Positions 14,601 to 39,774 of a DNA stretch of 57,763 nucleotides are shown in pieces. The first letter of the stretch is position 1. The number at the start of each line of letters is the position of its first letter. Below the pieces are notes generated by a model. It had not been told where the DNA came from and did no database searches. It saw only the letters and a program-made list of their open reading frames with translations. The translations under genes and the position numbers were made by a program. Source of the stretch: a virus (Duplodnaviria; Caudoviricetes); IMG/VR virus record IMGVR_UViG_3300042346_000645, positions 1 to 57,763 of that record. The stretch is one strand, 5' to 3'.

Positions 14601-17600
14601 CGAAGTGCATTTTTGAGCCATGCTTTGAATCTTTGAACAATTTTGAGTTTAGGCGCATATTTAATTAAATAGGCAAGCGTTTCTTCGCGCAAATCTTCTT
14701 GAGGAGTATCTGCATCTAACGCATCTTGTCTACCTTTAACAGCCGCTGGGTTTTTAACTTTCACTAAGTTATCAGTTTCTTTTAAGAAATTTTCAAATTC
14801 AGCTTCATTAGCTCCCATTTTAAGCATATGCACACTAACTTCGTGCATCATTAAATAATGTAAATCTGTGGCTTTATCAATGTTGTCTGCAACAAAATAA
14901 GTTTTACCGTCAGCAGGATTATAGAATGCTTCAATATCACCGTTTTTGCTGTACTTAATATCAAAAGGTTGCAATACTTCATTTTGCCAAACACCTTGAA
15001 AGCCAATACGTTTTCTATCAATACCTTCGCGGTTAACTACTTTTTGCCATGCAATAGATCGCTCAATACTTTGTTTAACATCAAAACCTTTATAATCGTC
15101 CTTTACCCATTCCCATTTATGGTGATAGATAGCTTGTTTATCTGGGTTTTTATTTAAATCTACCGTCCGTATTGTCCCGTCTGGTTCAACTACAATTAAA
15201 TTACCGTTAATGGGTTCGGGCGAAGTATCAAAATCGGGCGAATTAAAAAATCCAATTGCACCAGTTTTAGTATTATAACGAATAAGGTTATATTCAAAAT
15301 CATCAATACGTTCTTTAGCATCCGCTAAATCGCCTTGTGGGAGAACCCCTTCATAATCTCTATGAAGATACACCTCATCCCCCATTTTTTTACCGACACC
15401 AAATTCAGAATATCTTTCTCCTGCGCCTAACTCTTTTGCTTCTTTTCTAAGCGCTTCTGTTTCAGCAGAACCAATTTCAACTTTTTCTTTTTTAACAGGT
15501 TTTAAAATTGAATCTAAAATAGGTGTGCCGCCAGATTTTTGAATAATTACCGCGCTTGCACCATAGCCGTTAATTTTTCTAACATCAAAATCTGGAAGTA
15601 ATTCTTGAACATAAGCAACTAACTCGTCTGGCTCAATGCCTTTTTGATAATTAGTTTGTTCAACGCCTTTTAATTTACGAGTAACATAAAAAGAATTGGG
15701 TTCTTCACCCGCTTTTGAATTTGCAGGTTTAATGGTATCGACATCACCTTTCCAACGACGACTACTAATTACGCCAACACCTCCATCTTTTAAAATTCGC
15801 CCAATATTTTTTACAATATCATCTCTAATTGCTCTTGGGACAACATTTAATACGTTTAAATTTACTACCGCATCTTGACTACCGTCTTTAATATTATCGG
15901 CATTTGTAAAATCGGGTTCGTCTGTTAATGATTTTGCCCAATTTTCTGGGAAAGGCTCGTAAGATTTTACATTTACATCCATTCCCTTATTAGTCAACGC
16001 TCTAAAAACACTTGCCGTACCACGTCCTTTCCCCGCACCATAATCCAATATGTTTTTAAGGTTTGGTATTTTTGCAAATAAGTTTCTAGCAACAGCGGCA
16101 TACGCCCCCATTGTTGTATCAATTTGGGTGTTTGCTGCGGAACGATCTCCAACTAATGCAAATTTAGTTCCGGTAGATTCTTCAATAATCGCTTGTGCTT
16201 GCTCATCAGAGATAATCTCAAACATCCCTGTACCAAGTAACTTATCAGTCCATCCTTTACCGTAAGCATCGTCACCGGCTTTGGTCAAACCTTCTTTTAA
16301 AGATTGCTCGGTGTGAGTATTGGTAGCGGCTTGTCGATTTTTTCCAAACAGTAAATCACTAAAGTTTAAAAGCGCGTCACTGCGGCTTTGCGCATCACCT
16401 TCGGTATAACGCTTAATTTTAGTGATACCATTAGCATTTAGGATTTTAACCGCTTCATCATACTCTTTACCTTTTGGAACTAACGCACCAGAGAATTCGC
16501 CAATATCAACAGCTCGCCCAATTTTCCCTTCAAAATAATGCGCAGGCATATTTTTGAGTTTATCTAAGAAACTGTACACTTTGCTCATCGTTTCTTCGGG
16601 TACATCTTGATACGATTCTTTAAATGCCCGTAAGCCTTTTGATACAAGATCACTCAATGCGTCCGTCGCGCTAGGATCAGAATAATCAGAGTACGGTCTT
16701 AATTCATCTGAAATAGAATTAAATTCAGATTCTAATTCTTCTTTTAATTGCGCTAATTTTTCATCACTAACAATATCTCCGCGAGCATCTTGTATTTGCT
16801 TAACAGTTTTAAATTGTTTTGCGGTATATGCGCGAATTGTACCTATCCCATAACTAACGTTTTCACCGCCTTTTATGGTTTTAGTCATTAGCTTCACAAC
16901 CGTGTCGAGATTGTGCGGTAAATAAACGCGCTTACCCGAACTGGTATAACCATTAAAAATACGTTCGTCAGATACAAGATTACTGTAATTTTCAACTAGC
17001 CATTTTTCATATTGAGTTTGATTGGTTTTTTCACGAATCAATTTAGAAGTCGCATAATCATCAATTGATTTTTGCGCTCCTTTTTGATCTCGAAATTCTT
17101 TAATTGCATATTGATAATCAAACGCTAAGTTTGATGCCTGTTGGCTATCGATTTCAATATAAGGTTTTGATGTGCCTAAAGTTTCATTTCGTTTTTTAAT
17201 AGACTCATTAAAAATATCCACAACTGCTTGTACAAATGTAGGGTCATTTTTCAATTCCATTGCATCAATTTTTGAAGAAACAAATTTCTTCATACTAGCA
17301 GGTGGAGTTTTGTTGGGTCTATATTGAATTTTAGGCGCTTTGCCGATTGACTTTAAAAACTCATATTTTAAAGTCACGCTATCTTGCAATCCTTTTAACA
17401 CTCCTCTATCTTCAATAGACGATGCGTTAATTAAACCTCTATAGCCAATTGCTTTTGCTAATTCTTTAGTATCGTCTGATAACGATTCATTTGCATTATT
17501 AAGTGCTTTAGAATCAACAACATAAGTTACTTGGGGATAACGTGGAGAATACACATCTGCATTAAAGTATTTATTTTTAGCGTTTACTTCTGGGGCAAAT

Positions 17601-20600
17601 TGTGAGGTATCCCCAATTAAAGTAATTTCACCAAAGCCACTTAGCGGATATTTTTGATTAACTATTGCTACACTAGGTACAGCGATACCGCCCATTTTGT
17701 CGGCATGGGTCAAATTACTTAAGCTGAGATTGTGAATAATAGCCAATGGGTTTTCATCTAAAACCTTTTTAGCTGTTTTGCTGAATCGAATATCATTTGA
17801 TTCTTTGCTAAACGCACCCGTGTTTTCAGTAGCTGACTTAACTTGATTTGAATTAAATACAATATAATCGTTATCTAATTCAACGCCATTGAATTTAGCA
17901 TTTATCAATTGGTCAGTTGTCAAAGAATCATATTCATCCCATCCTGCTATTTTTTTAATATCTAAAAATACCGGCATGAGTATATTGGTAGATGCAGCTC
18001 CCACATCTGCAATATTGTCTTTATCAGATGTGAACCAAAATAAACTATCTTGTGTTTTATTAGAATCGAATTCAGTAAATTTATCAGCGGTAGCATGATA
18101 AACCACCATAGGTTCGCCATTCTCATCAACAACCTTAGACGCATTTTCTGGATCATTTTCCCAATCACCAAACCACTCTTTAAATTCTGGCGTTCTGACT
18201 TGGTCGTATTGAACCGCGTTTAAGTTTGAGGGTTTACCGTTAGGCGCAAGGCGTTGCTGAGATTTGGCTTTGCTGAATTTTAAACTTGATGGTTTAATTA
18301 AATTAGGAATAGCCTTTGACATTTCATATTTAAAAATGTCGGTTCTTGAATAACCAAACGTAGGATGTGTAAATGCAAATTCATTAATATTTTTAGGAGC
18401 ATCATCACGATACCATCGCGCTATCTCAGATGTTTTTGATAAATCCCCATAAACTTCTTTTATTTTATTAGCAATTTGTTTTATATCATTTTCTGAAAAA
18501 TTAGATAAAGAGTTATCTATTGACATAACCCTAGAAACTTTATCAAGCTCCGTTTCAACTAACACGTTTCCTTTTTTATCAAAAGCCACCATACTAGGAT
18601 AATCTAAAAAGTTTTTTGGGTTATTAAAAACTAGGTATTCATCGTTACTATTTTTAAAAATAGTAAATACACCCGTATTTTTAAATTTTTTAAATCCTAG
18701 ATAATTTGCAACTTTTTTTGAAATTTCTAAATACTTATCGGTATATGTATCTGAGTCACTATTGATTTCTTCTAAAATCGCATTACGTCTATTTTCAAGA
18801 GTATCCCCTTGATACGACTCTCCTAGTAAAAATTTATTATATTCATACTTTTTGCGAAGCACATCTCTTTTTTCCCAAATAGCTGGGTAATCTTTTTTAA
18901 TTTGACTAGCACTTCTGGAAGATACGTATTGCCCCTCAGTTATTGCTAATTCAATAGCGGCTCTATGTTCACGTTCAGCTTGTGCAGTAATTTTTTCAAT
19001 ATCACCATTAGGGTTACTTGCAAGTTTTTGTTTTACATATTCCTCTTTACTATACTCAAATATTTCTTTAACGTAATCAGATGTTTTTCTATTTTGATAT
19101 TTGGGATTATAAGTTTCATCCCCATACCCTTTCTCAATAGTCACATTCGCCTGTTTAAGCGCTGCTGTGAGCGCTTTATTATCTTGGCTACCTAACTTAA
19201 TGCTTACATCTTTTCTGCCCTCTAAAAGCTCTTTATAAAGCTCTGGCGCATAGGCTTTGGCTTTGACTGGGAAAACGTGCGCATAAAGATTAAATTCAGC
19301 CACAAGTTCTTTATCACTTGCTAAATAAGGATGATTAGCTTCCGCATCACCTAGAATTAATTCTTTAAGTGTAGCGCGTTCATCTTCAGTTAATTTGCGA
19401 TAATTGAGCAATTGATGGTGAATAGCATGACCGAGTTCATGTAATGTGGTGCGATCAGATTGGCTTGTTTGATAAATAGCTTGTTCAACTTGATCGTAGA
19501 ATCCACCGATATTGCTATCTGTATTGATTAATGAAACCGATTCGAGATTAGGGTATTGGGTTTCATAATCAATTTCAGTTTCATCAAATTTACTTTGAGC
19601 GCCTTTATCCCCATAGAACCAATGATTAGGATAAAGTTTTTTAAGCTCAAGTGGTGAGTTAGCAAGTTGCTCACCTTCAATTGTCACTTCACGCCCAACG
19701 GTAGCTTTGCCCTTACGTTCTGGTGCAAAAATATCACCAGAAGTTGTCATGCCTTTACCGAGCATTTCATCAACTACTGTATCAACTTCTAAATCAGCTT
19801 TACGTTTCTTTTCCGCTTTAATATCTGCAATGATTTTATCTTCTTCAGCTTGCGTCTTTGCATCTAAAATTGCGTTAACTTCTTCATTTGTATAGGTATT
19901 TAGAAGTTCATCTCGGTGTTGCTGTTCTAAATCATCCTCTCTATCGGCGAACATTTTGGCAACAGCATTATCAATGCCTTCATACCCATAGTAGGGTTTA
20001 CCGTTTAGTGAGTCCCATAGTGCTGTTTCTAAATCATTTGCTCCATTGATATCACTAAAACCTTGTTCATTTAGAAGGGTTGCCATATCGTCAAATGTGC
20101 GAGAACGTGCGCCATTATTGAATAAACGAATATTCTTTTTATAGTCAGTAAATCCGCGATCCGCCATTTCAGTTCTATCAAGTCCTCCGAGTTTTCCAAT
20201 TAAAACTTTGAGTTCTTCAGTTCCATTTACTTTATTTAAATTAGCCGCAGGGTTTCTTGGTTTTCTAGCCACTTGGTCTTCAGTGACAATACCGTATTTC
20301 TCATCGCCAAGTTTTACCCAAGTGTGAGTATCCTTAGATAATTCTGGATTGGTGCGAATATGCGTTTGCGCTCCTTGCGGACTAGTAAATGCCTTACCGT
20401 TCTTTCTAAGAATAGGATTATTAATTGTTCCTTTGGGTTCTGCTACTGGTGTTTCTGTTGCTAACGATTCACCAGCTTTCAATTCATCTAATTTTTTAGC
20501 AGCTAATAGCGATTTATTCAAACTCCCCGTTAAATGAGTAGGTCGTTTTTTTGAAGTCAAAATATAATCAGTAATTTCGTTTCTATATTCAGCAGGTGTA

Positions 20601-23600
20601 CTTAAAATAATATCGTGAAACGATTCAGTTTTATTTCCATTTCTAGAATTATCTACATTATCAACACGTTGTTTTGCTTTTTCAATTTCTGCTACTGGTG
20701 TTTGATTTGTAACTTCAACGCTTGGTTTTAAATCGGGATAATCAGCTAACACTTCTTTGGGTACAGGCTTACCTTCATCAAGTGCTTCTTGAACACGTTC
20801 TTTATGAACTGCTAGTAATTCATCATACCGTTTTTTGTTTTGTTCAATAGCTATTTTACGAGAATTATCTTCAGACTTTTGCGCCCATTTTACATTGTAA
20901 GTAGGGTTCTTTTTAGATTGCGCTTTTTCTTTAACTAAGCTGCGAGTGCTATCTTTCTTTTCTTGCTCAAGTTCACTTCTAGTTTTTGCCCAAAATTCTT
21001 TTTGCCCAGACCATGTTCTGATTAAAACTTTATCAGCTTGTTCCTGTGTTAAGTTACCTAGAGTTACAGCATTGCGAATAGTATCGTCGTATGCTGATTC
21101 CTTAGCTGTTGGGAATCTTACTGCATATTCTTCACGAGTTAACTCATACAGTTTTTTATTTTCTGCTGTTGGAGTTTCTGCTACAGGTATTTCTGCTGTT
21201 GGCGTTTCTGTTACAGTAGCTTGTGAAACATCTTTGTTAATTCGATTAATTGCATCATTTAATATTTGATTTTTAGCATTAATCGATTTCAATTCAACAT
21301 TCAAAGGTTCATTTAAAATCTTTCCAGCCAAGTATCGGTGATGACCATCTTGAATTTTTATTTCACCATCGCTATAAATAGTAGCCTTAATGGGTTCGCT
21401 CAAATCAACACTTTTTGCCCATTCTTCTTCAGATTTACCGCTTGCCTTTTGAGAACTAACCGCCCAATTAATTTCAGTTTGATTAAGTGGTTTTAATTCT
21501 TGCGGCATTATTTTACTAACTTCTTTTACATCACCGTAATATTTACCATTAGGTTCATTGTAATAAGTGGTTACAGGCATTTCTGCTGTTGGTGTTTCTG
21601 CTACAGGCGTAACTGTTTCATTTGGTTTTAATACAATGTATTCCTTACCGTTAAATTTGCTATTAAATGAAATACCATCATAACCTTGCTCTCTTGCTGT
21701 ATTGACAAGGTCGTCCATTGAATTGGAAGGCGCTAAGCCAATTTTTTGTTTAGCTTCTGCCCAATTGTTAGCTTCAAGTACATTATTAAAAGTATGAGTT
21801 GATTTAGATATGCTACCTTCTTCACCAGCATAATCCTTAGCTATTTTTTCATCTGGTGACATAAATAGTGCATTACCAACTGTGGTAGTAACATCTTCAG
21901 TTGATTTCCCCTTTGGAACACCTCGATATAAATCCACTGTAATTGGCATTTCTGCTGTTGGCGTTTCTGCTGTTGGCATTTCTGCTGTTGGCATTTCTGG
22001 CGCTTGCTCAATCGGTGTAATCAAATTAGTGTAATGATCCCTTTGCGCCTTATTGAGCGAATACTTCTCACCTGTTGGGAGATATAGCATTCCGCCTTTA
22101 AGCTCTGCGCCACCTTGCGCCACTGCTTGACCAATAAAATCTAAACTTTCCTGTGTAGCGTCTAACTTATCTGGTTTAGGAGCGGGAGGCTCAATTACCG
22201 GTGGTTCAACTACAGGTGTTGCCGCTTGAATGTCTGCTTCATTTTGCGCTTGAGCGCGAGTAGTGTCATGTCCAAAGTTATTAGCTTCAACAATATTGGT
22301 GAACGTGTCGATAGCTTCTTGCGGTGTTGTCGTTTTATCCAGTTCTGTTGTGATAGTTTCATTGTCCACAATAGGCGCTGTGGTATCTACCGCTTCAGCA
22401 GGTGGGGTAGGGTTTAAATTCTCATCTCTGAAAATATCCGTATAGGCTCTTAGGTTTTCATTAACAGGTGTTTCTGTTTCCGCTTGAGTTTCCGCTTGAG
22501 TTTCCGCTTGAGTAGTATCAATAGGCGCTTGTTGTGGTTTACCACCAGACGCAGCAAAATAAGCATTGCGCTCATCTTCTGTCATGCCTTTGGCTCTATC
22601 GATTTCTTTTTGACGCAATATTTCATCGCCGGTTAATGTCTGAGCAGTTTGACCGGCAGTGCTAATAATAGCCTGTCCTCCGCCCATTGCAGCGCCTGTA
22701 ACCAAGCCTATTGCCGCAGCGTTTGGTACACCTTCAAATAGACTTGGTTTATCTAACGCATAGTTTTCGATAATCTTTTCTACGGCAGATTGTGGCATTT
22801 CTTCCACTACACCTTCAATAGCCATTCCACCTAATATCTGTTTCGCCATATCGCGAAGTGATACTTCTGACGATTGTGTTCCTGCTGATAATGTATCAAT
22901 ATCAGATATGCCTAATTTCTTAGCGGCTACGCTACCGATACCAGCTAAGAACGCATCGGCTGCACCTGCGCCTACCGCTGAAGCTGATTGCTTTTCTGTA
23001 AGCAATCCATTATCGGTTTCTTGGCGTATCCCTTCAGCCTGTTGCCCTGCGCCTACTACAAACTCACCTGCACCTGCTCCAATTACACCACTGGCTTTGC
23101 CAAGCATACCAATACCTTTTACAGCGCCACCGATTGCACCACCTGCATAAGAAGCAGGTGCGGATTCAAGTGCAGTATTTAGTGTAGCTACTGGATTGGT
23201 TACTGCTGCTTTTAATGTGCCGCCAAATGTGTCTTGTGATTGAATCTCTTTTTGAGCCGCTTGTTCTTCTGGTGATTGTTGTGAGGTTAGATATTCTCTA
23301 GCCGCTTTGAAATCAATCCCCTTATCTTCCAAGTATTTACCTGTTTCGCCACCACTGGCAATGTCCGCAATACCTGTAATAAATTCTGGAACACCAATTA
23401 CGCCTTTTGATAGTGCCATTGATTGATCGTAAGCATATCGTCTTACTGCACCAATAGGTGATGACTCTAATGCTGTTGCTACCTGTTTTGCAGATTGATA
23501 AGCAGGTGAGTTTTCAATATCAGTTCCCACCTGTTTGGCTTTATCAAATAACGATGGCTGTTCTGTTTCTTGTGCTACAGGCTGTTCTGTTTCTTGTGCT

Positions 23601-23800
23601 ACAGGTTGCTCTTGCGCTATGGAAGTTTCTACAGGTTGTTCGGCTACTTTTTCTTTCTCAGCATCCGATGTTACTGGAAAATCCTGTAGCGTATCCCAAT
23701 TTGCTATTAGATAGTCCAGTGCTTCTTCTTGTGTTGCGCCTTCTGATCCACTGACTGTGTATCTTTTCCCATTGGGTGCTTTAAAAGTAAAAATAGCCAT
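11630..23800 (-). CDS. Giant polyvalent (probably ejected) protein: two ART-like domains, ParB-like domain, two zincin peptidase motifs, SAM methyltransferase, LPD38-like C-terminus
   Basis: 4056 aa; LYRG..FMS..GYDGI..EYIVL; IQDGHHRY; HELGH; FKEWFGDW..VVYHAT..NQVKSA; LDYGAGKG..NVLNV; HEVSVH; NFNRRG..YLFFNAAIQG. Confidence 0.8.
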   Translation of the reverse strand: MAIFTFKAPNGKRYTVSGSEGATQEEALDYLIANWDTLQDFPVTSDAEKEKVAEQPVETSIAQEQPVAQETEQPVAQETEQPSLFDKAKQVGTDIENSPAYQSAKQVATALESSPIGAVRRYAYDQSMALSKGVIGVPEFITGIADIASGGETGKYLEDKGIDFKAAREYLTSQQSPEEQAAQKEIQSQDTFGGTLKAAVTNPVATLNTALESAPASYAGGAIGGAVKGIGMLGKASGVIGAGAGEFVVGAGQQAEGIRQETDNGLLTEKQSASAVGAGAADAFLAGIGSVAAKKLGISDIDTLSAGTQSSEVSLRDMAKQILGGMAIEGVVEEMPQSAVEKIIENYALDKPSLFEGVPNAAAIGLVTGAAMGGGQAIISTAGQTAQTLTGDEILRQKEIDRAKGMTEDERNAYFAASGGKPQQAPIDTTQAETQAETQAETETPVNENLRAYTDIFRDENLNPTPPAEAVDTTAPIVDNETITTELDKTTTPQEAIDTFTNIVEANNFGHDTTRAQAQNEADIQAATPVVEPPVIEPPAPKPDKLDATQESLDFIGQAVAQGGAELKGGMLYLPTGEKYSLNKAQRDHYTNLITPIEQAPEMPTAEMPTAETPTAEMPITVDLYRGVPKGKSTEDVTTTVGNALFMSPDEKIAKDYAGEEGSISKSTHTFNNVLEANNWAEAKQKIGLAPSNSMDDLVNTAREQGYDGISFNSKFNGKEYIVLKPNETVTPVAETPTAEMPVTTYYNEPNGKYYGDVKEVSKIMPQELKPLNQTEINWAVSSQKASGKSEEEWAKSVDLSEPIKATIYSDGEIKIQDGHHRYLAGKILNEPLNVELKSINAKNQILNDAINRINKDVSQATVTETPTAEIPVAETPTAENKKLYELTREEYAVRFPTAKESAYDDTIRNAVTLGNLTQEQADKVLIRTWSGQKEFWAKTRSELEQEKKDSTRSLVKEKAQSKKNPTYNVKWAQKSEDNSRKIAIEQNKKRYDELLAVHKERVQEALDEGKPVPKEVLADYPDLKPSVEVTNQTPVAEIEKAKQRVDNVDNSRNGNKTESFHDIILSTPAEYRNEITDYILTSKKRPTHLTGSLNKSLLAAKKLDELKAGESLATETPVAEPKGTINNPILRKNGKAFTSPQGAQTHIRTNPELSKDTHTWVKLGDEKYGIVTEDQVARKPRNPAANLNKVNGTEELKVLIGKLGGLDRTEMADRGFTDYKKNIRLFNNGARSRTFDDMATLLNEQGFSDINGANDLETALWDSLNGKPYYGYEGIDNAVAKMFADREDDLEQQHRDELLNTYTNEEVNAILDAKTQAEEDKIIADIKAEKKRKADLEVDTVVDEMLGKGMTTSGDIFAPERKGKATVGREVTIEGEQLANSPLELKKLYPNHWFYGDKGAQSKFDETEIDYETQYPNLESVSLINTDSNIGGFYDQVEQAIYQTSQSDRTTLHELGHAIHHQLLNYRKLTEDERATLKELILGDAEANHPYLASDKELVAEFNLYAHVFPVKAKAYAPELYKELLEGRKDVSIKLGSQDNKALTAALKQANVTIEKGYGDETYNPKYQNRKTSDYVKEIFEYSKEEYVKQKLASNPNGDIEKITAQAEREHRAAIELAITEGQYVSSRSASQIKKDYPAIWEKRDVLRKKYEYNKFLLGESYQGDTLENRRNAILEEINSDSDTYTDKYLEISKKVANYLGFKKFKNTGVFTIFKNSNDEYLVFNNPKNFLDYPSMVAFDKKGNVLVETELDKVSRVMSIDNSLSNFSENDIKQIANKIKEVYGDLSKTSEIARWYRDDAPKNINEFAFTHPTFGYSRTDIFKYEMSKAIPNLIKPSSLKFSKAKSQQRLAPNGKPSNLNAVQYDQVRTPEFKEWFGDWENDPENASKVVDENGEPMVVYHATADKFTEFDSNKTQDSLFWFTSDKDNIADVGAASTNILMPVFLDIKKIAGWDEYDSLTTDQLINAKFNGVELDNDYIVFNSNQVKSATENTGAFSKESNDIRFSKTAKKVLDENPLAIIHNLSLSNLTHADKMGGIAVPSVAIVNQKYPLSGFGEITLIGDTSQFAPEVNAKNKYFNADVYSPRYPQVTYVVDSKALNNANESLSDDTKELAKAIGYRGLINASSIEDRGVLKGLQDSVTLKYEFLKSIGKAPKIQYRPNKTPPASMKKFVSSKIDAMELKNDPTFVQAVVDIFNESIKKRNETLGTSKPYIEIDSQQASNLAFDYQYAIKEFRDQKGAQKSIDDYATSKLIREKTNQTQYEKWLVENYSNLVSDERIFNGYTSSGKRVYLPHNLDTVVKLMTKTIKGGENVSYGIGTIRAYTAKQFKTVKQIQDARGDIVSDEKLAQLKEELESEFNSISDELRPYSDYSDPSATDALSDLVSKGLRAFKESYQDVPEETMSKVYSFLDKLKNMPAHYFEGKIGRAVDIGEFSGALVPKGKEYDEAVKILNANGITKIKRYTEGDAQSRSDALLNFSDLLFGKNRQAATNTHTEQSLKEGLTKAGDDAYGKGWTDKLLGTGMFEIISDEQAQAIIEESTGTKFALVGDRSAANTQIDTTMGAYAAVARNLFAKIPNLKNILDYGAGKGRGTASVFRALTNKGMDVNVKSYEPFPENWAKSLTDEPDFTNADNIKDGSQDAVVNLNVLNVVPRAIRDDIVKNIGRILKDGGVGVISSRRWKGDVDTIKPANSKAGEEPNSFYVTRKLKGVEQTNYQKGIEPDELVAYVQELLPDFDVRKINGYGASAVIIQKSGGTPILDSILKPVKKEKVEIGSAETEALRKEAKELGAGERYSEFGVGKKMGDEVYLHRDYEGVLPQGDLADAKERIDDFEYNLIRYNTKTGAIGFFNSPDFDTSPEPINGNLIVVEPDGTIRTVDLNKNPDKQAIYHHKWEWVKDDYKGFDVKQSIERSIAWQKVVNREGIDRKRIGFQGVWQNEVLQPFDIKYSKNGDIEAFYNPADGKTYFVADNIDKATDLHYLMMHEVSVHMLKMGANEAEFENFLKETDNLVKVKNPAAVKGRQDALDADTPQEDLREETLAYLIKYAPKLKIVQRFKAWLKNALRNMSKMFPASQKLGFIQWANNLSDQDLLYIAEATLRKAPEMLVAQRQDTGNVKFSLAQNEENLFNLPAETKFQFMRKWIQDDLLRIRIVMDKIREQGGKVDESNDVVLAMEAAGNIAANQLESLKERFIQPLIDRMAKMNVNKDEIGLLLYAKGAPSRNAYIQSINPKFRKLGEGGSGMTDKESAAIIERYKETMGDKYPEFEKLVDDWQNIQNIVKRILVQSGDISPEQAEEWDNASDYHVPMKGFEEVDEVTGKATKKSSRGNIGQGFSISGKFDRKMLGRQSRASQIVENIVMNLERAVIRSSKMYVQSVLYKLIEDNPDANLWETEVTPMKPIMGKAKAQYVMYFHGSEIGQRDTLRDARRYVEAETARTGQSKREYEIIKVGGEPQVTLMKKPYDQNEEISYWRNGKQVRITVNDSEFVQAFNRLGDENIYSMFKFMAAFGRFLRHAFTIWNPVFIINNGVWVDPAVGLYTNTARKGFKYAGTVLLKTPMSAIQIGKYIAKGSTDNAEWNRVIKSYLDNGGKSGTAFISSIEKKADELNLAVLKSKMMDTKFYEYPLDKLKLAIVDNKLANLLAYLGDVAETATRLSTFKVAVDNGMTPQEAAKLSRNVTINFNRRGIAGRELGATYLFFNAAIQGTENLIDATIRGEHKVQATAILSSYVMLGYLLALLGGDDGDDELIPEEEKTRYVGIKLDEETGLRVNAKLAYGLSFFKDFGTAIARLQLGGDPEKVINKLTASFFTNFSYFNPMASGEWDNKDLAASFIPTILKPFYSITSNRNQWGKPIYPEDVYNTTIPDSEKEWSTTRGTMYSDFAKWMNKVTGGTKVESGFVDVSPETMKYLTNSLGGSAATQLYKFVNSIYTSSINTDEMNVSNLPIVSGFVKENTIDSYRRVYNSQRKEAKDIYDKFKKYEKLGDDEATDKFTSKHQPTLDFYDETKSIIKEVKDLRDKQDEARVEGDKALVKELEAEEKQLLIEYSYQYNQRQ

Positions 23801-29921: not shown

Positions 29922-29927
29922 AATATT

Positions 29928-29951
29928 AGCCGGTTAACTGCCGGCTTTTTT
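29928..29951 (+). terminator. Rho-independent terminator closing the early unit
   Basis: AGCCGG/CCGGCT stem plus T-run. Confidence 0.75.
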
Positions 29952-29952
29952 G

Positions 29953-30212
29953 TCTGCGACAAAGCGACAGAGTGTACATAGTTTTTCCCATTTATATATA
30001 TATTATAAATCAATACAAAAAAGGCTATATTTCTATTAATTAATCTCTATACCAATTATTACTAAAACTATGTATACTATGTCGCAGAGAGTATAAGAAT
30101 GTAGTATTTATAAGGGTTTGAAGGTGCGACATAGTGATTTTTTAACTGTGTCGCAAATACATAGTTACTTTGTCGCAGATAAAATTTAGCATTTTTTCTC
30201 TGCGACACAGTT
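29953..30212. other. Putative replication origin with GCGACA iterons
   Basis: Seven GCGACA/TGTCGC copies in both orientations around an AT-rich core, just downstream of the primase gene. Confidence 0.6.
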
Positions 30213-30218
30213 TAAATT

Positions 30219-34216: not shown

Positions 34217-35354
34217 CGAAGAACAACCTAAACACTCCTTGTTGAGTGCAAGTGGTAGCGCTACTTGGCTGTATTGCTCCGGTAGCGTCGCAGCGCAAAA
34301 GTCTTACAAAGAATCCCGTAGCGCATTTGCGGACGAAGGAACGGCAGCGCATGAGCTTGCAGAGATATGCTTGAAAGGCGATCTCAATCCGTTTGATTTT
34401 GAAGGTAAGCAATTACCCGAAACCCACTGGATAACGGTAGATAAGACAATGTGCCACCATGTAAATGATTACATGGATTTCATTGCAGAACACAAAGGTC
34501 ATAAAATCTATGAGCAGAAACTCGACTACAGCGAGTACGCGCAGGACGGTTTTGGTACAGCCGATTGCATTATCTTAAATGACGACAATGTAACGATTAT
34601 CGACTTGAAGTACGGCAAAGGCGTGAAAGTCTATGCTGATACCACGCAAACTAAAATCTACGCGCTAGGAGTCTATAGCGAGTTTGGTATGCTTGAAGAT
34701 ATCAAGACCATCACAATGATTATCTACCAACCGCGACTAGACCATATTGATGAATTGACAATAAGTATCGACGAGTTACTAGCATTTGGTGAGTGGGTAA
34801 AAGAGCGAGCAGAATTGGCTATGCAGGAAAATGCCCCGCTGACTGCTGGTGAGAAGCAATGTCAATGGTGTAAACACAAAGCACGATGCCCAGAGCTTAT
34901 GCGCTACACAGAAAATGCCATTCAAAACGAGTTTGGTTTTTTCGACGAGTTGCCAAGTGTAAACAGGTTATCCGACGCAGAGCTTAACCTTGCACTGAGT
35001 AGCGCGACATTGATTAAATCATGGCTGAGTGCCATTGAAGAACACGTTAGAGAGCGCTTAGAATCGGGCGATGGCTTTACCGGCTACAAACTTGTCGAAG
35101 GTCGCAGTTCACGCGATTGGGGTAGTGAAGAAGAAGCCGTTATTGCACTCTCTGACGCACACACTGAAGAAGAATTGTTTGAGCGTAGTTTTATTTCAGT
35201 GGCTAAATTTGAAAAGTTGGTAGGCAAGAAAAACATAAAAGACTTTGAAAATCTGATAGTTAAAAAATCGGGCAAACCAACCGTTGTGCCAGAAAGTGAC
35301 CCCAGAAAATCGTTGTCAGTTTCTGCAAATGATTTTTCTGATTTTGACGATTGA
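34209..35354 (+). CDS. DUF2800 family PD-(D/E)xK (Cas4-like) nuclease
   Basis: HSLLSAS, EGTAAHELAE, FGTADC, IIDLKYGKG, Q..IYALG, CQWC..C, GYKLVEGRS. Confidence 0.9.
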   Translation: MTNEEQPKHSLLSASGSATWLYCSGSVAAQKSYKESRSAFADEGTAAHELAEICLKGDLNPFDFEGKQLPETHWITVDKTMCHHVNDYMDFIAEHKGHKIYEQKLDYSEYAQDGFGTADCIILNDDNVTIIDLKYGKGVKVYADTTQTKIYALGVYSEFGMLEDIKTITMIIYQPRLDHIDELTISIDELLAFGEWVKERAELAMQENAPLTAGEKQCQWCKHKARCPELMRYTENAIQNEFGFFDELPSVNRLSDAELNLALSSATLIKSWLSAIEEHVRERLESGDGFTGYKLVEGRSSRDWGSEEEAVIALSDAHTEEELFERSFISVAKFEKLVGKKNIKDFENLIVKKSGKPTVVPESDPRKSLSVSANDFSDFDD

Positions 35355-35379
35355 CACAAGTAATAAATCAATCTAAACT
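35351..35379 (+). promoter_or_regulatory. Sigma70 promoter for ssb and the downstream RNA array
   Basis: TTGACA-17-TAAACT. Confidence 0.7.
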
Positions 35380-35412
35380 TAACTCAACTTATCTCTCCGG
35401 TTAAGTTAAAAC

Positions 35413-35501: not shown

Positions 35502-36026
35502 ATGTCAGAAACACAAATTAAATTAGGCGAAGTTCGTTTGTCATTCCCATCTCTTTTCAAAAAAGCAGTATTTGAAGGAGAGGAAACAAAATTCGAAGCT
35601 ACCGTGCTAATGGAAAAAGACAGTAAAAATCACAAAATTACCGAAGCGGCAATTGAAAAATTCATTGCGCAAACATTTAAAGACGGTGCGCCTAAAGGTC
35701 TTAAAATTACTTGTTTTCAAGATGGTGACACTAAAGACGTAGAAGGCTATGAAGGCATGATGGCGCTAAAAGGCTCATCAAATAAACGCATTCCAGTATT
35801 CGATAAAGACCGCTCACCAATCACAGAAGAAGATGACAAGGTGTACGCTGGATGCTACGTCAATGCGATTTTTGACTTTTGGTTTTCAAGTCACCCTAAA
35901 GGTGGCAAACAAATTCTTGCCAATCTTCTTGGTGTTCAATTCAAGAGAGATGGCGAAACCTTCTCTGATGCTAAAGTCGCAAGCGCTGATTTCTTTGACG
36001 ACGAATCAGAAGAAGATGATTTTTAA
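35502..36026 (+). CDS. DUF2815 family ssDNA-binding protein
   Basis: VRLSFPSLF, VYAGCYVN, LLGVQFKRDGE, acidic tail DDESEEDDF. Confidence 0.9.
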   Translation: MSETQIKLGEVRLSFPSLFKKAVFEGEETKFEATVLMEKDSKNHKITEAAIEKFIAQTFKDGAPKGLKITCFQDGDTKDVEGYEGMMALKGSSNKRIPVFDKDRSPITEEDDKVYAGCYVNAIFDFWFSSHPKGGKQILANLLGVQFKRDGETFSDAKVASADFFDDESEEDDF

Positions 36027-36084
36027 ATACTCTGTGTCCTCAGTGTGGTGAAAAGACGATTGGATTAACATCGTAAAAGTTAAT

Positions 36085-36119
36085 TGACAGCTTGGAAAGA
36101 CAAGCACTATGAATAAAAC
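36085..36119 (+). repeat. 35-bp direct repeat (second copy 36389-36423)
   Basis: TGACAGCTTGGAAAGACAAGCACTATGAATAAAAC occurs exactly twice; contains a GCTTG/CAAGC hairpin. Confidence 0.9.
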
Positions 36120-36268
36120 GCCTTGAAAGATCGTGGAGACCTTACTATAACTCTAAGCGCTTAGTGGTTATAGTATAAAACGCGTAAGCGGGGGAAGCTC
36201 AGTAAAGCCGACAATTGCAAATCGATGTGTAATTGTTTGGAAGAAGTAACGGGCGTTTTATTGATAGT
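36106..36268 (+). ncRNA. Putative structured ncRNA cassette A
   Basis: 17-bp closing stem 36106-36122/36252-36268 (one mismatch); two long internal hairpins; no ORF. Confidence 0.55.
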
Positions 36269-36409
36269 TATCAAAGCCTAGACCAACCGCGTGTACATGC
36301 GGGAACGTAGTATGGTAACTATCAACAGCACGACTGCAAGAGCGAAACTTGAGTGCTTGTGCGCCGGACGCTGTAACCGGCAACTATCTGACAGCTTGGA
36401 AAGACAAGC

Positions 36410-36591
36410 ACTATGAATAAAACATCGCTCGCTCTCACCGCAAATGAGAACCTTGCAGCCTTTAATTTTGACAAAGCGCAATAGCTACGCGCTCGACAAA
36501 GGTAAGGTCATTTGTGAAGATGACCTGCTACTGCGATAGGGAAGGCGGAAACTGAATCGTAGGGGGCAGTAAACGGTGTTTTATTGATAGT
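36410..36591 (+). ncRNA. Putative structured ncRNA cassette B
   Basis: 18-bp closing stem; paralogue of cassette C with covarying helices. Confidence 0.7.
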
Positions 36592-36720
36592 TAATGCGCA
36601 GGCTGATGCACTTAATAACGCAGAGGATGATAGACCCAAATAAATTTGGTAGGCATCACTAAAATGGTAAACAGTTAAATTGTCTGCGTGAATTTACTAA
36701 AGCCGGAGATCAGCACCGGC

Positions 36721-36908
36721 AACTATCACTAAAAGCATTGCTTGTAGCGTACCGCAATTCGCAACCTTGCAGCCTTTAATATCGGTAAAGCGCACTAGCT
36801 ACGCGCTCGATTCGGGTTGAGATTACCGGTGACGGTAATTCACTAACTACATAGGGCAGATTAGAACTGATTGTAGTGGGGTAGTAAACAGTGCTTTTAG
36901 TGATAGTT
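36721..36908 (+). ncRNA. Putative structured ncRNA cassette C
   Basis: 20-bp closing stem 36721-36740/36889-36908; shares AACCTTGCAGCCTTTAAT and TAGCTACGCGCTCGA with B. Confidence 0.7.
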
Positions 36909-37030
36909 AAACTGATTATTTAGCTATTGGCCTTTGTTGAATGTTTTAAGCACACTATATTTCGAGTGTATAGTGTGTTGCATTAAATCCTAGACACGCA
37001 TACGCCAATATGCGTGTCGCCTAATTGGGT

Positions 37031-37137
37031 TTTTAAAAGTAAGTTTGCGGGTGTCCTCATAGACCCAAAAAAGTTATGAGTCAGTGACTTTAGATTTTTA
37101 ATCCTGTGTAAATAATCAAGTAAACTTACTTTTAAAA
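37031..37137 (+). ncRNA. Putative structured ncRNA cassette D (pseudoknot cargo)
   Basis: 18-bp closing stem 37031-37048/37120-37137 enclosing an H-type pseudoknot. Confidence 0.55.
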
Positions 37138-37159
37138 CCTCAAGCTCCACCTCTCCTCT

Positions 37160-37193
37160 GCCGACATTTTGCTATCAACTTGTCGGTTTTTTT
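37160..37193 (+). terminator. Rho-independent terminator ending the RNA array
   Basis: GCCGACA/TGTCGGT stem plus T-run. Confidence 0.65.
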
Positions 37194-37214
37194 ATATTTG
37201 CAATAAGGACACCC

Positions 37215-37943
37215 ATGGAATTTGAAAAGAAGTTAAGCAGAAAAAACAAACGCGCTAAAAAGTTTGAAAAAGTAGAAACTTATCAATCAAATGATCCTAG
37301 CGAAAACAGCTATACTATCAAAGCGCCTGTTGCAATGAACAAGGCTCAACAACAATACCTTAATAGTATTTACGCTAACGTCATCACCTTTGGCATTGGG
37401 TGTGCAGGTACAGGTAAATCTTATTTAGCACTTAGTTACGCAGCGCAACAGCTCCAATTAAAAAACGTCAGTAAGATAATCATTTCACGCCCACTGGTTG
37501 AAGCCGGTGAAAGTTTAGGTTATCTCAAAGGGGAACTTAGCGATAAGACCGAGCCTTGGATGCTTCCAATGATTGAGATACTCAATAAGCGATTAGGTAA
37601 AACTAGCACTGAGTATTATTTAAGCAAAAAGATTATAGAATTCAAGCCTTTAGCCTATTTGCGCGGTACAACATTCAATGATGCAGTAGTGATACTTGAT
37701 GAAGCGCAAAACACCACATCAAAACAAATGGAAATGTTTTTAACACGGATTGGTGATGAAGGTAATATCAAAGTGATTGTCGATGGGGATTATAGAGGGC
37801 AAAAAGACATACAAGGACTCTCCGGTTTAGAAGATGCCGTTATGCGTCTAAAAGATTTGGAATCAGTAGGCTTTTGTTATTTTGATATTGATGACGTAGT
37901 GCGTAGCGGTATATGTAAACAGATACTTTTGCGATACAGATAA
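37215..37943 (+). CDS. phoH: PhoH family protein
   Basis: GCAGTGKSYLA, ISRPLVEAGESLGYLKG, PLAYLRGTTF, ILDEAQNTT..QM.MFLTRIG. Confidence 0.93.
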   Translation: MEFEKKLSRKNKRAKKFEKVETYQSNDPSENSYTIKAPVAMNKAQQQYLNSIYANVITFGIGCAGTGKSYLALSYAAQQLQLKNVSKIIISRPLVEAGESLGYLKGELSDKTEPWMLPMIEILNKRLGKTSTEYYLSKKIIEFKPLAYLRGTTFNDAVVILDEAQNTTSKQMEMFLTRIGDEGNIKVIVDGDYRGQKDIQGLSGLEDAVMRLKDLESVGFCYFDIDDVVRSGICKQILLRYR

Positions 37944-37977: not shown

Positions 37978-39774
37978 ATGAATACTTACATTATTGACAC
38001 TGAGTGTTATAAAAACTATTGGCTATTTTTAGCCGTTAATCATAAAACAGGTGCATCGCTTGAAATAGAATTATTTGGCGAAGATGCAAAGTTAAATGAG
38101 CAGCAAGCCAAAAAGATACAGCGTCTATTTCTTAATCATGAAACCGTTTCATTCAATGGGCTTAATTACGATATACCAATGATATGCGCGGCATTGGATG
38201 TGTGGGATTGCTCAAAATTACACAAACTTTCCACAAAGATAATCACAGATCAGCGCGTTACTTGGCAGATACTCAAAGAGCATAACCTCCAAGTCCCTAC
38301 TTACGATAAACATATCGACATTATCGAGATCCCCATTGGACAGGCATCGCTTAAAATTTACGGTGGACGTATTCACACCCAGAAAATGCAAGACTTGCCA
38401 ATTGATCCTAACGAGTTAATAAAAGATACTGAGCGTAGTTTGATGCGCAAGTATTGCAGAAACGATACGCAAGTGACCGGTGAACTGTTTGACAAGCTCA
38501 AAGGGCAGATAGACTTGCGCAAAGAGATGACGCAGCAATACGGTATCAATCTCAATTCAAAATCCGATGCGCAAATTGCTGAAACTATCATAAAATCAGA
38601 ACTTTACGAAAAAACTGGCGAGCATTATCGTGCCACAAAGTTTGATGATAAATACACGTTTACTTATCGAAATCCAGATATTATTCAGTTTAAAACACAG
38701 GAACTCTGCGACATTTTTGACCAGCTAATTTATGAAACTTTTACGCTAAAAGCAAATGGCAGTGTTGAACTACCTCAATGGTTAACTCAACCTATTCAAA
38801 TTGGCAATGCGTCATATCAAATGGGGATTGGTGGGCTTCACTCACGCGAAACCGCCCAACACATTAAATCCAGTAACGGTTACTTTCTATCTGATTTTGA
38901 TGTTGCCAGTTACTACCCATCAATTATCCTGCATCAAAGGTTATTTCCAGAATCAATGGGAGAGAATTTCCTTAACCTATATCGAGAGATTGTAAAAAAA
39001 CGTATTACAGCGAAACACACAGGCGATAAAGTTACTGCCGATACACTTAAAATCGTACTCAACGGGAGTTTTGGTAAATTTGGTAGTAAATACAGTAGCT
39101 TATACTCACCGCAGTTACTTCTGCAAACAACAATCACAGGTCAACTAGCACTACTTATGCTGATTGAAGAACTTGAATTAAACGGTATTCGCGTAGTTAG
39201 TGCAAACACCGATGGGATTGTGACGTATTACCACGAAAGTCAAATACCTACGCTACAAGATATTCTATTTAATTGGGAAATTCAAACCAGCTATACGCTA
39301 GAGCAAACTGATTACCGTGAACTCGCGTCGCGTGATGTAAATAACTATATCGCTGTGAAGCTCGATGGTAAAACTAAATGCAAAGGGTGCTTTGGTGAAG
39401 CGTCACTGAGTAAAAACCCCGACGGCTTAATCATCTATGAAGCAGTCGCTGAGTTTATTGCTAACGGAACGCCAATTGAAAAGACAATTACCGATTGTGA
39501 GGATATTAGAAAGTTTGTCACAGTTCGCAGAGTAACAGGTGGTGCATTGTTTAGAGGAGAGTATCTTGGTAAAGCAGTTCGCTTTTATCACAGTTGCGAT
39601 TTAGGTCTTGCTGATATGTCACTTGTCTATGCAAAAAATGGAAATAAAGTCCCGATGTCACAAGGCTGTCGTCCATTGATGAATTTGCCAAATGCTTTTC
39701 CAGAGGATGTTAATTTTTATTATTACTACACTAAAGCAAACGAAGTGTTAAAAGGAGTTGGTTACAATGCTTGA
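37978..39774 (+). CDS. DNA polymerase, family B-like, with 3'-5' exonuclease
   Basis: IDTECY, FNGLNYD, YCRND exonuclease motifs; DFDVASYYPS, KIVLNGSFGK, SANTDG polymerase motifs. Confidence 0.88.
   Translation: MNTYIIDTECYKNYWLFLAVNHKTGASLEIELFGEDAKLNEQQAKKIQRLFLNHETVSFNGLNYDIPMICAALDVWDCSKLHKLSTKIITDQRVTWQILKEHNLQVPTYDKHIDIIEIPIGQASLKIYGGRIHTQKMQDLPIDPNELIKDTERSLMRKYCRNDTQVTGELFDKLKGQIDLRKEMTQQYGINLNSKSDAQIAETIIKSELYEKTGEHYRATKFDDKYTFTYRNPDIIQFKTQELCDIFDQLIYETFTLKANGSVELPQWLTQPIQIGNASYQMGIGGLHSRETAQHIKSSNGYFLSDFDVASYYPSIILHQRLFPESMGENFLNLYREIVKKRITAKHTGDKVTADTLKIVLNGSFGKFGSKYSSLYSPQLLLQTTITGQLALLMLIEELELNGIRVVSANTDGIVTYYHESQIPTLQDILFNWEIQTSYTLEQTDYRELASRDVNNYIAVKLDGKTKCKGCFGEASLSKNPDGLIIYEAVAEFIANGTPIEKTITDCEDIRKFVTVRRVTGGALFRGEYLGKAVRFYHSCDLGLADMSLVYAKNGNKVPMSQGCRPLMNLPNAFPEDVNFYYYYTKANEVLKGVGYNA

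Follow-up and report, generated by a model that had tools for sequence, protein, structure and literature searches.

What is 1.2 kb of apparently noncoding DNA doing among the replication genes of a tailed phage? We address this question for a complete IMG/VR virus record, IMGVR_UViG_3300042346_000645 (57,763 bases with direct terminal repeats; hereafter the window), in which the interval between the single-stranded-DNA-binding protein gene ssb and the phoH gene (36027-37214; 1188 bases) is without a credible open reading frame (ORF). A preliminary description of this DNA had already regarded the interval as noncoding, and this was borne out: the longest ORF is 67 amino acids (aa), and none of the six small ORFs tested matched a PHROG family. 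The interval holds four independently closed RNA folds, A, B, C, and D, which are under selection on the plus strand, and units of this kind are exchanged as modules between related phages. Ahead of A and B stands a 25-nucleotide (nt) leader, here called P0, which is a newly recognized and widespread phage motif. The array is probably an operon of stable, independently folded RNAs that are cotranscribed with ssb and freed at their closing stems.

Each of the four units is shut by a stem of 17 to 25 bp with zero to two mismatches. Cassette A (36106-36268; 163 nt) has a stem of 17 to 18 bp (36106-36122 / 36252-36268; 17 nt, 94% paired) around a cargo of about 127 nt with three or four hairpins, and its predicted fold has an energy of -51.1 kcal/mol. 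Cassette B (36410-36591; 182 nt) is closed by 36410-36427 / 36574-36591 (18 nt, 89%), cassette C (36721-36908; 188 nt) by 36721-36743 / 36886-36908 (23 nt, 91%), and cassette D (37025-37143; 119 nt) by 37025-37046 / 37122-37143 (22 nt, 91%). When the whole window was scanned for long-range stems (at least 16 positions, at most one mismatch, loop of 40 to 260), 12 were found, five of them (four distinct) within 36106-37143 and four in noncoding DNA at 29948-30216. Against shuffled sequence, the plus-strand folds gave z-scores of -4.6 (A), -4.3 (B), -5.1 (C), and -5.6 (D). The four stem-closed segments, the ACTAT(G/C)A...TGATAGT scaffold with its paired inner stem changes, and the AGTAA(A)C ahead of every 3' arm had all been reported in the preliminary description and were found at the same places, as were small hairpins ahead of A (36090-36105), B (36394-36409), and C (36702-36720) and a terminator at the end of the array; the closing stem of D is without the ACTATCA scaffold. 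The ACTATG variant yields a G-G mismatch, and the ACTATC of relatives makes a perfect pair; because relatives read ATC at this place, the ATG in the A and B stems is not a conserved start codon.

The strongest evidence that these folds are under selection as RNA comes from one cargo family. The cargos had been described as all different; this holds for A and D, which are distinct, whereas alignment showed B and C to be diverged copies of a single RNA family (type-C RNA). B and C of the window were aligned with seven relatives found on other contigs (nine sequences in all), giving a consensus fold of 55 pairs in eight helices (in C, a closing stem of 19 to 25 bp and seven inner helices). Compensatory changes occur in 19 of the 55 pairs, 97.6% of the alignment cells are paired, and none of 500 column shuffles reached any of the five measures used; when the partners were moved by 1 to 3 columns as a control, pairing fell to 28 to 51%. 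The covariation extends through the inner cargo helices and is not confined to the closing stem, in agreement with the earlier claim that pairing is selected at the RNA level. Several pairs are G-U on the plus strand in most or all sequences (pair 17/172 is U-G in all nine), and since such fixed G-U pairs would read A-C on the other strand, the plus-strand RNA is what is selected. For D, the conserved core, GGGTGTCCTCATAGACCCAAAAAAGTTATGAG, recurs in the unrelated contig L065 within a different closing stem of the ACTATCAAT type, with compensatory changes in both the core hairpin and the closing stem; by eye, this core could also form a pseudoknot.

Comparison of the ssb-to-polymerase interval across relatives revealed contents that differ from phage to phage, and the locus is swappable, as had been proposed. 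A protein search with ssb retrieved 29 related IMG/VR loci at 81 to 99% identity, 27 of which could be anchored on the end of ssb; the gap was complete to the next gene in 20, and the contig ended first in the other 7. Noncoding DNA follows ssb in all 27 anchored loci, with complete gaps of 402 to 1057 nt (or, in L012, 97 nt before an inserted HNH endonuclease gene). Together with the window, the 27 loci represent 19 distinct versions of the gap. These versions are mosaics: some contain D only, and others contain one or two of A and C plus new units, of which there are at least five further cassette types. The new types keep the ACTAT(C/G)A...TGATAGT base and differ in their inner stems, with cargos of 52 to 148 nt; among the loci compared, B was found in the window only. 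An HNH endonuclease gene lies at a cassette boundary in L012 (5623-6030, between two P0 copies; PHROG 1872, E = 2.5e-31) and in L021, and HNH remnants consisting of only the first 90 nt or the last 25 nt are present in L006-L008 and L024. A second cluster, HNH_3, was seen about 700 nt 3' of P0 in six loci.

The relatives also indicate what such a scaffold can carry. Cassettes in L103, L105, L106, and L055 score 31.9 to 35.5 bits against the Rfam transfer RNA (tRNA) model (threshold, 29), with the acceptor stem prolonged by the long scaffold stem; because these cassettes pass the threshold, the scaffold can hold tRNA-like cargo. ARAGORN reads a four-base anticodon (aaca) in an enlarged loop in two of these loci (L055, 1702-1778; L103, 1916-1992).

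P0 consists of TGACAG, a 5- to 6-bp stem with the loop GAAAGA, CAC, and usually TA. Copy 1 (36085-36109, plus strand; GCTTG/CAAGC stem, GAAAGA loop, CACTA) ends in the first bases of the A closing stem, and copy 2 (36389-36413, plus strand) matches it over 35 nt; these are the only two matches in the window, with zero expected from 100 shuffles. An exact-pattern scan of IMG/VR, in which TGACA was itself fixed by the pattern, found P0 in at least 115 stretches on contigs of 2 to 380 kb with very different G+C contents, where by our own arithmetic only a few chance matches are expected. P0 is present once in each of the five whole phage records with a match (48 to 380 kb) and twice in the window. 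Among the matches listed, 107 nonredundant copies had equal-length arms; their three variable stem positions occur in 22 variants, comprising 293 Watson-Crick, 5 G-U, and 7 mismatched positions. The flanks beyond the motif are not conserved, and P0 loci have no protein cluster in common (the largest covers 11 loci). A terminator just before P0 is not general either (8 of 100).

In GTDB (185,579 species genomes; 596 Gb), the pattern matched 24 times, 16 of them with a paired stem; by our own arithmetic, 19 fixed bases would match about 17 times by chance in a database of this size, and only the 16 were therefore counted. They include Neisseria, three Clostridia metagenome-assembled genomes (MAGs), one Bacteroidales MAG, and three Methylococcaceae MAGs, whereas matches in Streptococcus, Prevotellaceae, Flavobacteriales, and Nitrosomonas were dropped for their unpaired stems. 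The Methylococcaceae matches (L160, L166, and L172) are from Methylobacter, Methylomonas, and one unclassified MAG; L166 and L172 carry freshwater-type cassettes, and L166 has a type-C RNA followed by the same terminator as the window. These MAGs are either a host lead or a case of a misbinned phage contig. P0 was also found in about 20 cultured-phage records, among them coliphage mEp390, Cronobacter phage ESP2949-1, and Stenotrophomonas phage Pokken; most low-ranking BLAST rows for cultured phages lay inside genes and were taken as chance. Three other identities for P0 were tried and set aside. All 24 GTDB matches are single within the stretch fetched (up to 600 nt on each side), unlike a CRISPR repeat or its solitary mimic; a put- or nut-like site of the phage HK022 type gave one chance-level loop match in 12 kb; and the ORF that follows P0 in mEp390 has, by eye, no arginine-rich start of the kind expected of an N-like protein.

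P0 abuts the 5' ends of folded RNAs well beyond the freshwater phages. Among the 114 nonredundant copies listed, 44 are followed by a long-range stem of at least 14 pairs starting 0 to 3 nt after the first C of CAC, compared with 2 of 80 places picked at random in these loci; with the freshwater scaffold left out, the count among the matches listed is 11 of 59. True or near-true tRNAs start 0 to 5 nt after P0 in L038, L118, and L125; tRNA genes were found in 16 of 60 P0 loci scanned, on the same strand as P0 wherever strands were compared, and P0-led units stand in or before tRNA arrays of other phages. In L063, P0 is followed by a hammerhead-like core (21.8 bits, E = 0.03, below threshold), and a RAGATH-1 hammerhead lies near P0 in L097; apart from tRNAs and these two, Rfam returned only noise on the relatives and cultured phages. 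In other loci, a Shine-Dalgarno site and start codon come 8 to 30 nt after P0. The same design occurs directly 3' of the repressor gene, on the same strand, in mEp390 (L173, 2473-2781) and in an Escherichia coli prophage (L177, 1300-2257), opening with P0 or a variant of it, followed by a closing stem, a short cargo with GGTAAGTAAAC at its end, and the 3' arm. Two such units, alike in closing stem but not in cargo, lie in a 960-nt gap free of ORFs in the prophage. In these lambdoid elements, the place 3' of the repressor gene often holds exclusion genes expressed in the lysogen.

Evidence for expression comes from assembled RNA libraries. The claim that the array is one transcript gains some ground here: in two studies, assembled RNA libraries contain contigs that span the ssb 3' region, P0, and the first cassette of relatives, as a single transcript would, although this falls short of proof. 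One RNA-library contig covers C (36700-36894, depth 23.5) and then runs into 21 other letters that we take to be sequencing adapter; this junction suggests that many fragments stopped at 36894, within C's 3' arm, which would mark a discrete RNA end there and is the one hint of a cut in a closing stem. None of the four runs compared covers 35000-35320 or 37996-38200, and the RNA contigs break off at 35410, 35438, and 35670; these limits are no evidence of a transcript start. Upstream of ssb, a promoter-like TTGACA, 17 nt, TAAACT (35351-35379, plus strand) is the candidate transcript start. The array ends in a terminator-like hairpin (37161-37193, plus strand; CCGACA / TGTCGG, 6-bp stem, 14-nt loop, seven T), which is kept in relatives with a longer, 8-bp stem; it was not listed by our terminator scan because the 14-nt loop exceeds the scan maximum of 8.

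These observations fit a stable-RNA operon of the following kind. A plus-strand transcript that includes ssb would run from the promoter-like site to the terminator, as the RNA contigs hint. The long closing stem would pair both ends of each RNA, in the manner of ribosomal RNA (rRNA) processing stalks, and a host double-strand-specific nuclease (RNase III or similar) would cut the stems and free end-protected RNAs. P0, a general leader in many unrelated phages, directly abuts a folded RNA, a tRNA, or a gene start and may serve in processing, stability, or antitermination. With P0, the ACTATCA...TGATAGT stem base, and the 3' hairpin as conserved boundaries, recombination there could exchange, add, or drop whole units. 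Since tRNA look-alikes occupy this scaffold in relatives, our working guess is that the RNAs act in trans on host proteins that handle RNA.

Several points weigh against this account. The minus strand gives comparable z-scores (-3.1 to -6.0), as expected of inverted repeats, so fold energy alone cannot pick the strand. Cassette A has six variants in relatives with a mean column identity of 96%, too little difference for its inner fold to be tested by covariation. The strand call for P0 is weak (5 G-U versus 2 A-C positions), and P0 could therefore act as DNA. The TTGACA-17-TAAACT site is present 5' of ssb as described, but promoter-like sites are not enriched over shuffles (4 found versus 4.7 expected), so its promoter role is inferred from position only. 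The RNA runs are assembled contigs in which carried-over DNA is possible and strand and ends are unreadable, and the adapter junction comes from a single contig of one run. None of the four cargos in the window resembles a tRNA.

The same transcript could also be read as the structured untranslated part of an ssb, phoH, or polymerase message that works in cis alone, to govern read-through, RNA stability, or the balance between ssb and downstream genes, with P0 as an antitermination or stability signal and no separate functional RNAs. The array does lie between two replication genes with a terminator just before the next gene, and P0, with its short G+C stem and purine loop, stands ahead of a long stem. 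A short hairpin and then a long stem is the order found in the lambda N leader and in rRNA leaders; boxB hairpins are parts of the lambda nut sites, and similar hairpins occur in rRNA leaders. The mEp390 and E. coli prophage copies, placed 3' of the repressor gene and ahead of the next operon, would suit a cis role as well, as would the plain terminator hairpin that comes after P0 in four Neisseria genomes, L064, and L147. Yet cargo changes freely among phages whose ssb proteins are 81 to 99% identical, which would be odd for a tuned cis-regulator, and the slots that would hold cis elements hold tRNA look-alikes, free-standing molecules by nature. Vibrio phages with 59 to 65% identical ssb run straight from ssb into the polymerase gene without an array, and few P0 copies have a terminator-like hairpin directly behind them (4 of 113, including one after the unpaired-stem match L158, versus 1 of 91 control places). 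We consider a purely cis-acting role unlikely. The four Neisseria genomes (L151 and L161-L163) share one arrangement, in which a perfect terminator-like hairpin comes immediately after P0, with a gene start next.

If instead the units matter as DNA, they might be mobile regulatory cassettes resembling the PeSLs (promoter-early stem-loop cassettes) of T4-type phages, with P0 as a promoter containing a stem-loop spacer and the closing stems as terminators or recombination sites; what counts would then be boundaries for module shuffling, not RNAs. P0 opens with (T)TGACA and has TA(T/A) 16 to 18 nt on, it stands 8 to 30 nt before ORF starts in, for example, L058, L119, L120, and L132, and the 3' arms of A, B, and C have a T-run after their G+C-rich part; the HNH endonuclease gene between two P0 copies in L012 would also be at home among mobile cassettes. 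On the other hand, the -35-like TGACA is invariant partly since the search pattern required it, and the would-be -10 element is without its final T (T in only 14 of 68 examples). A start 7 nt on would fall within the tRNA in L118 and L125 or within a covarying 5' arm. The missing last T and such a start inside a tRNA or covarying stem make P0 unlikely to be an ordinary promoter. Among the MAGs with paired-stem P0 matches are some labeled Bacteroidales and Clostridia; promoters of Bacteroidales are not of the TTGACA type. Cassette C, which lacks P0 in the window, is nevertheless conserved and present in RNA-library contigs, and the inner cargo helices covary, which a boundary element would not need. 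As described by Arbiol et al. (2010, PMC2839356), the PeSLs combine a strong sigma-70 promoter with a terminator, flank protein ORFans, and number about 50 in each of two phage genomes; they place a short conserved stem-loop boundary before each module and are tied to the gain, loss, or replacement of modules between very close phages. The array has such boundaries too, but the -10 of P0 is poor, P0 abuts RNA 5' ends, and most genomes with P0 have one copy, as do all five whole phage records. Overall, we regard a PeSL-like explanation as quite improbable. Finally, that the inverted repeats are a replication origin or another single-stranded-DNA site is very improbable: the stretch does lie within a block of replication genes and hairpins with G-T pairs can also form in single-stranded DNA, but the content of an origin would not swap between close relatives, the inner cargo helices covary in an RNA-like way with fixed G-U pairs, and 29922-30218, which is AT-rich, has TGTCGCA / TGCGACA repeats, and lies by the primase-helicase gene, is a better candidate.

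Returning to the stable-RNA operon, the closest parallels are found among known RNA systems. rRNA operons have RNase III processing stalks and a hairpin-containing antitermination leader. Like the array, they put several structured RNAs on one transcript, each bracketed by a long stem made from its flanks, with a small leader hairpin just before the 5' strand of the stem; an RNase III stalk takes about two turns of double-stranded RNA, a length that the array stems reach at 17 to 25 bp. The array differs in that its cargos are RNAs of 50 to 150 nt rather than rRNA and its units are exchanged between close relatives, and no boxA-like sequence was seen at the array. A second parallel is provided by RNA C and RNA D of phage T4, small stable RNAs of phage tRNA clusters. 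These are likewise phage encoded, noncoding, and stable looking, and they share operons with tRNAs; the window is without a tRNA, and the array units have long closing stems and a conserved leader. By analogy, the array would belong with the phage stable-RNA operons, an already known kind.

Other systems resemble the array in part. Integron gene cassettes form an exchangeable array with attC sites, whose boundaries are likewise structured, variable in sequence, and conserved in shape; in the array, however, the cargos are RNAs, the stems enclose the cargo, covariation runs through the cargo, and no integrase was found among the 48 window ORFs scanned with Pfam. ToxI repeats are short, near-identical, and tandem (about 36 nt), and phage phiTE, the precedent named in the preliminary description, carries pseudo-ToxI; this too is a phage-borne noncoding RNA array, cut from one transcript, that could act on a host system. 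A ToxI-type array was rejected, as the units here are 119 to 188 nt, spaced 304 to 323 nt apart, and diverged, with no short tandem array and no ToxN-like gene by Pfam. A retron noncoding RNA was also rejected, there being no adjacent reverse transcriptase domain among the scanned window ORFs. Chen et al. (2014, PMC4201824) describe the bacterial Y RNA YrlA as lying beside the gene for Ro60 (TROVE domain), with a GNCGAAN0-1G motif and T and D arms around an acceptor-like hairpin; YrlA also has a long stem made from the RNA ends and a tRNA-like module and is found in phages. The array is not a YrlA locus: none of the 48 ORFs has a TROVE domain, there is no GNCGAAN0-1G in 36027-37214, and no T-arm or D-arm match was found. 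In the tRNA-like relatives of the array, the long stem prolongs the acceptor stem, which differs from YrlA.

The array is also new to the catalogs we searched. Rfam 15, with its riboswitches, ribozymes, GOLLD, ROOL, HEARO, 6S, Y RNA, c4, tmRNA, and other families, gave no match in the whole window at gathering scores, and with E values up to 10 only two snoRNA-type matches of 11 to 12 bits in 35900-37300. ARAGORN found no tRNA gene in the window, nor was there an Rfam tRNA match in 35900-37300. By blastn, the 1.2-kb stretch matched none of 50,697 phage records, a set that may lack close ones, and a full-text literature search returned no description of the motif or the arrays. The P0 core is absent from the part of the PMC10690425 supplement that was searched; the rest of that catalog of 10,006 viral RNA candidates may hold such units. 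What is new here is the P0 leader, its link to cultured phages, and the strong covariation of one cargo family; the spread of P0, the tRNA look-alikes in relatives, and the kinship of B and C had gone unmentioned in the preliminary description.

A bolder extension of the stable-RNA operon, which we offer tentatively and think rather doubtful, is that P0 and the closing stem form a host-independent platform for the expression and protection of RNA, with interchangeable payloads that act as decoys or inhibitors of host RNA-targeting defenses or RNA-processing enzymes. Payloads would include tRNA mimics, ribozyme-like cores, and folds such as A to D. On this view, the rapid replacement of payloads among nearly identical phages would be the mark of an arms race in which RNAs, not proteins, are the weapons, and P0 may signal processing or antitermination to a host factor present in all bacteria, such as RNase P or RNA polymerase. 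Decoys for RNA-dependent defenses such as type III toxin-antitoxin and retron systems had also been put forward as a possibility in the preliminary description. The window itself contributes no obvious partner, as had been claimed for reverse transcriptase, Cas, and toxin genes: RNA polymerase, reverse transcriptase, Cas, Ro60 (TROVE), and ToxN-like genes were not seen among the 48 ORFs.

To our knowledge, work on phage counter-defense and host takeover has dealt almost only with proteins. In this phage, 1.2 kb of a replication operon is given over to four folded RNAs with no match in any cataloged family, and close relatives exchange them. Should these RNAs prove to act on host enzymes or defenses, phages would have a new class of effector; a P0 that signals processing or antitermination would offer a small, transferable part with which to express RNAs in many bacteria. 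P0 ties the lake phage to cultured systems (mEp390, the E. coli prophage, ESP2949-1, and Pokken), and because these phages are tractable, the role of the cassettes can be tested directly at the bench.

Between the cassettes, the spacers differ in character. The A-B spacer (36269-36388, plus strand) contains small hairpins and is not unusually stable (z = -0.36 over 36269-36409); segment 36314-36413 recurs in L024 and L025 at 99% identity. The B-C spacer (36592-36701, plus strand; z = -0.56) opens with a hairpin in the GCGCAGGCTGATGCAC region that stands after many cassettes in relatives. The hairpin just 5' of C (36702-36720, plus strand; GCCGG / CCGGC with a 9-nt loop) occupies the position of P0 in L016 and L028. 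The C-D spacer (36909-37024, plus strand) is more structured (z = -4.4), with strong local hairpins at 36951-36977 and 36993-37018. In L028-L030 and L033 (the L028 group), the second of these keeps its 10-bp stem and has a reverse-complemented loop; on sequence grounds, this hairpin is inverted as a unit in that group. Six relatives (L005, L009, L012, L013, L016, and L028) have a further spacer module after the first cassette, with a fixed hairpin loop, TGAAAGTAC, and a 5-bp stem that covaries (GTGGC/GTCAC, TTGGC/GCCAA, TCGCT/AGCGA, and GTGGT/ACCAC); this is another RNA element and is absent from the window.

DNA runs containing the array stretch come from lake and freshwater metagenomes. The window encodes a set of tailed-phage proteins, including an SU10-type portal and adaptor, terminase, primase-helicase, and a DUF2800 nuclease, together with an Enc34-type ssb, PhoH, DNA polymerase, SNF2 helicase, ThyX, and dUTPase. 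The ssb gene (Enc34 / DUF2815 type) occupies 35502-36026 on the plus strand (Pfam PF10991, E = 2.3e-31), and the PhoH-like ATPase gene, also on the plus strand, occupies 37215-37943 (Pfam PF02562, E = 3.6e-66; PHROG 170). Among close relatives, L019 alone shares with the window a phoH gene 3' of the array; in the others, this place is taken directly by the polymerase gene. The PhoH cluster is also found downstream of P0 arrays in five loci of another phage group but is absent from most P0 loci. The polymerase ORF after the array has 367 aa in L005, L008, L017, L018, L020, L024, and L025, 598 aa in L009, L011, L016, L028, and the window, and 632 aa in L013 and L015. The first residues of the three forms are alike, and the gene may be split or insertion bearing in some relatives. 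The AT-rich intergenic stretch at 29922-30218 lies between convergent genes, adjoins the primase-helicase gene, and holds a terminator hairpin as well as six or more TGTCGCA / TGCGACA units in both orientations; it is probably a replication origin or an operator field. On the minus strand, 11630-23800 is a single ORF of 4056 aa with polyvalent-protein domains (ADP-ribosyltransferase, PBECR5 Barnase/EndoU-like nuclease, methyltransferase, and LPD38), and its product, as judged from these domains, is probably an injected multifunction protein.

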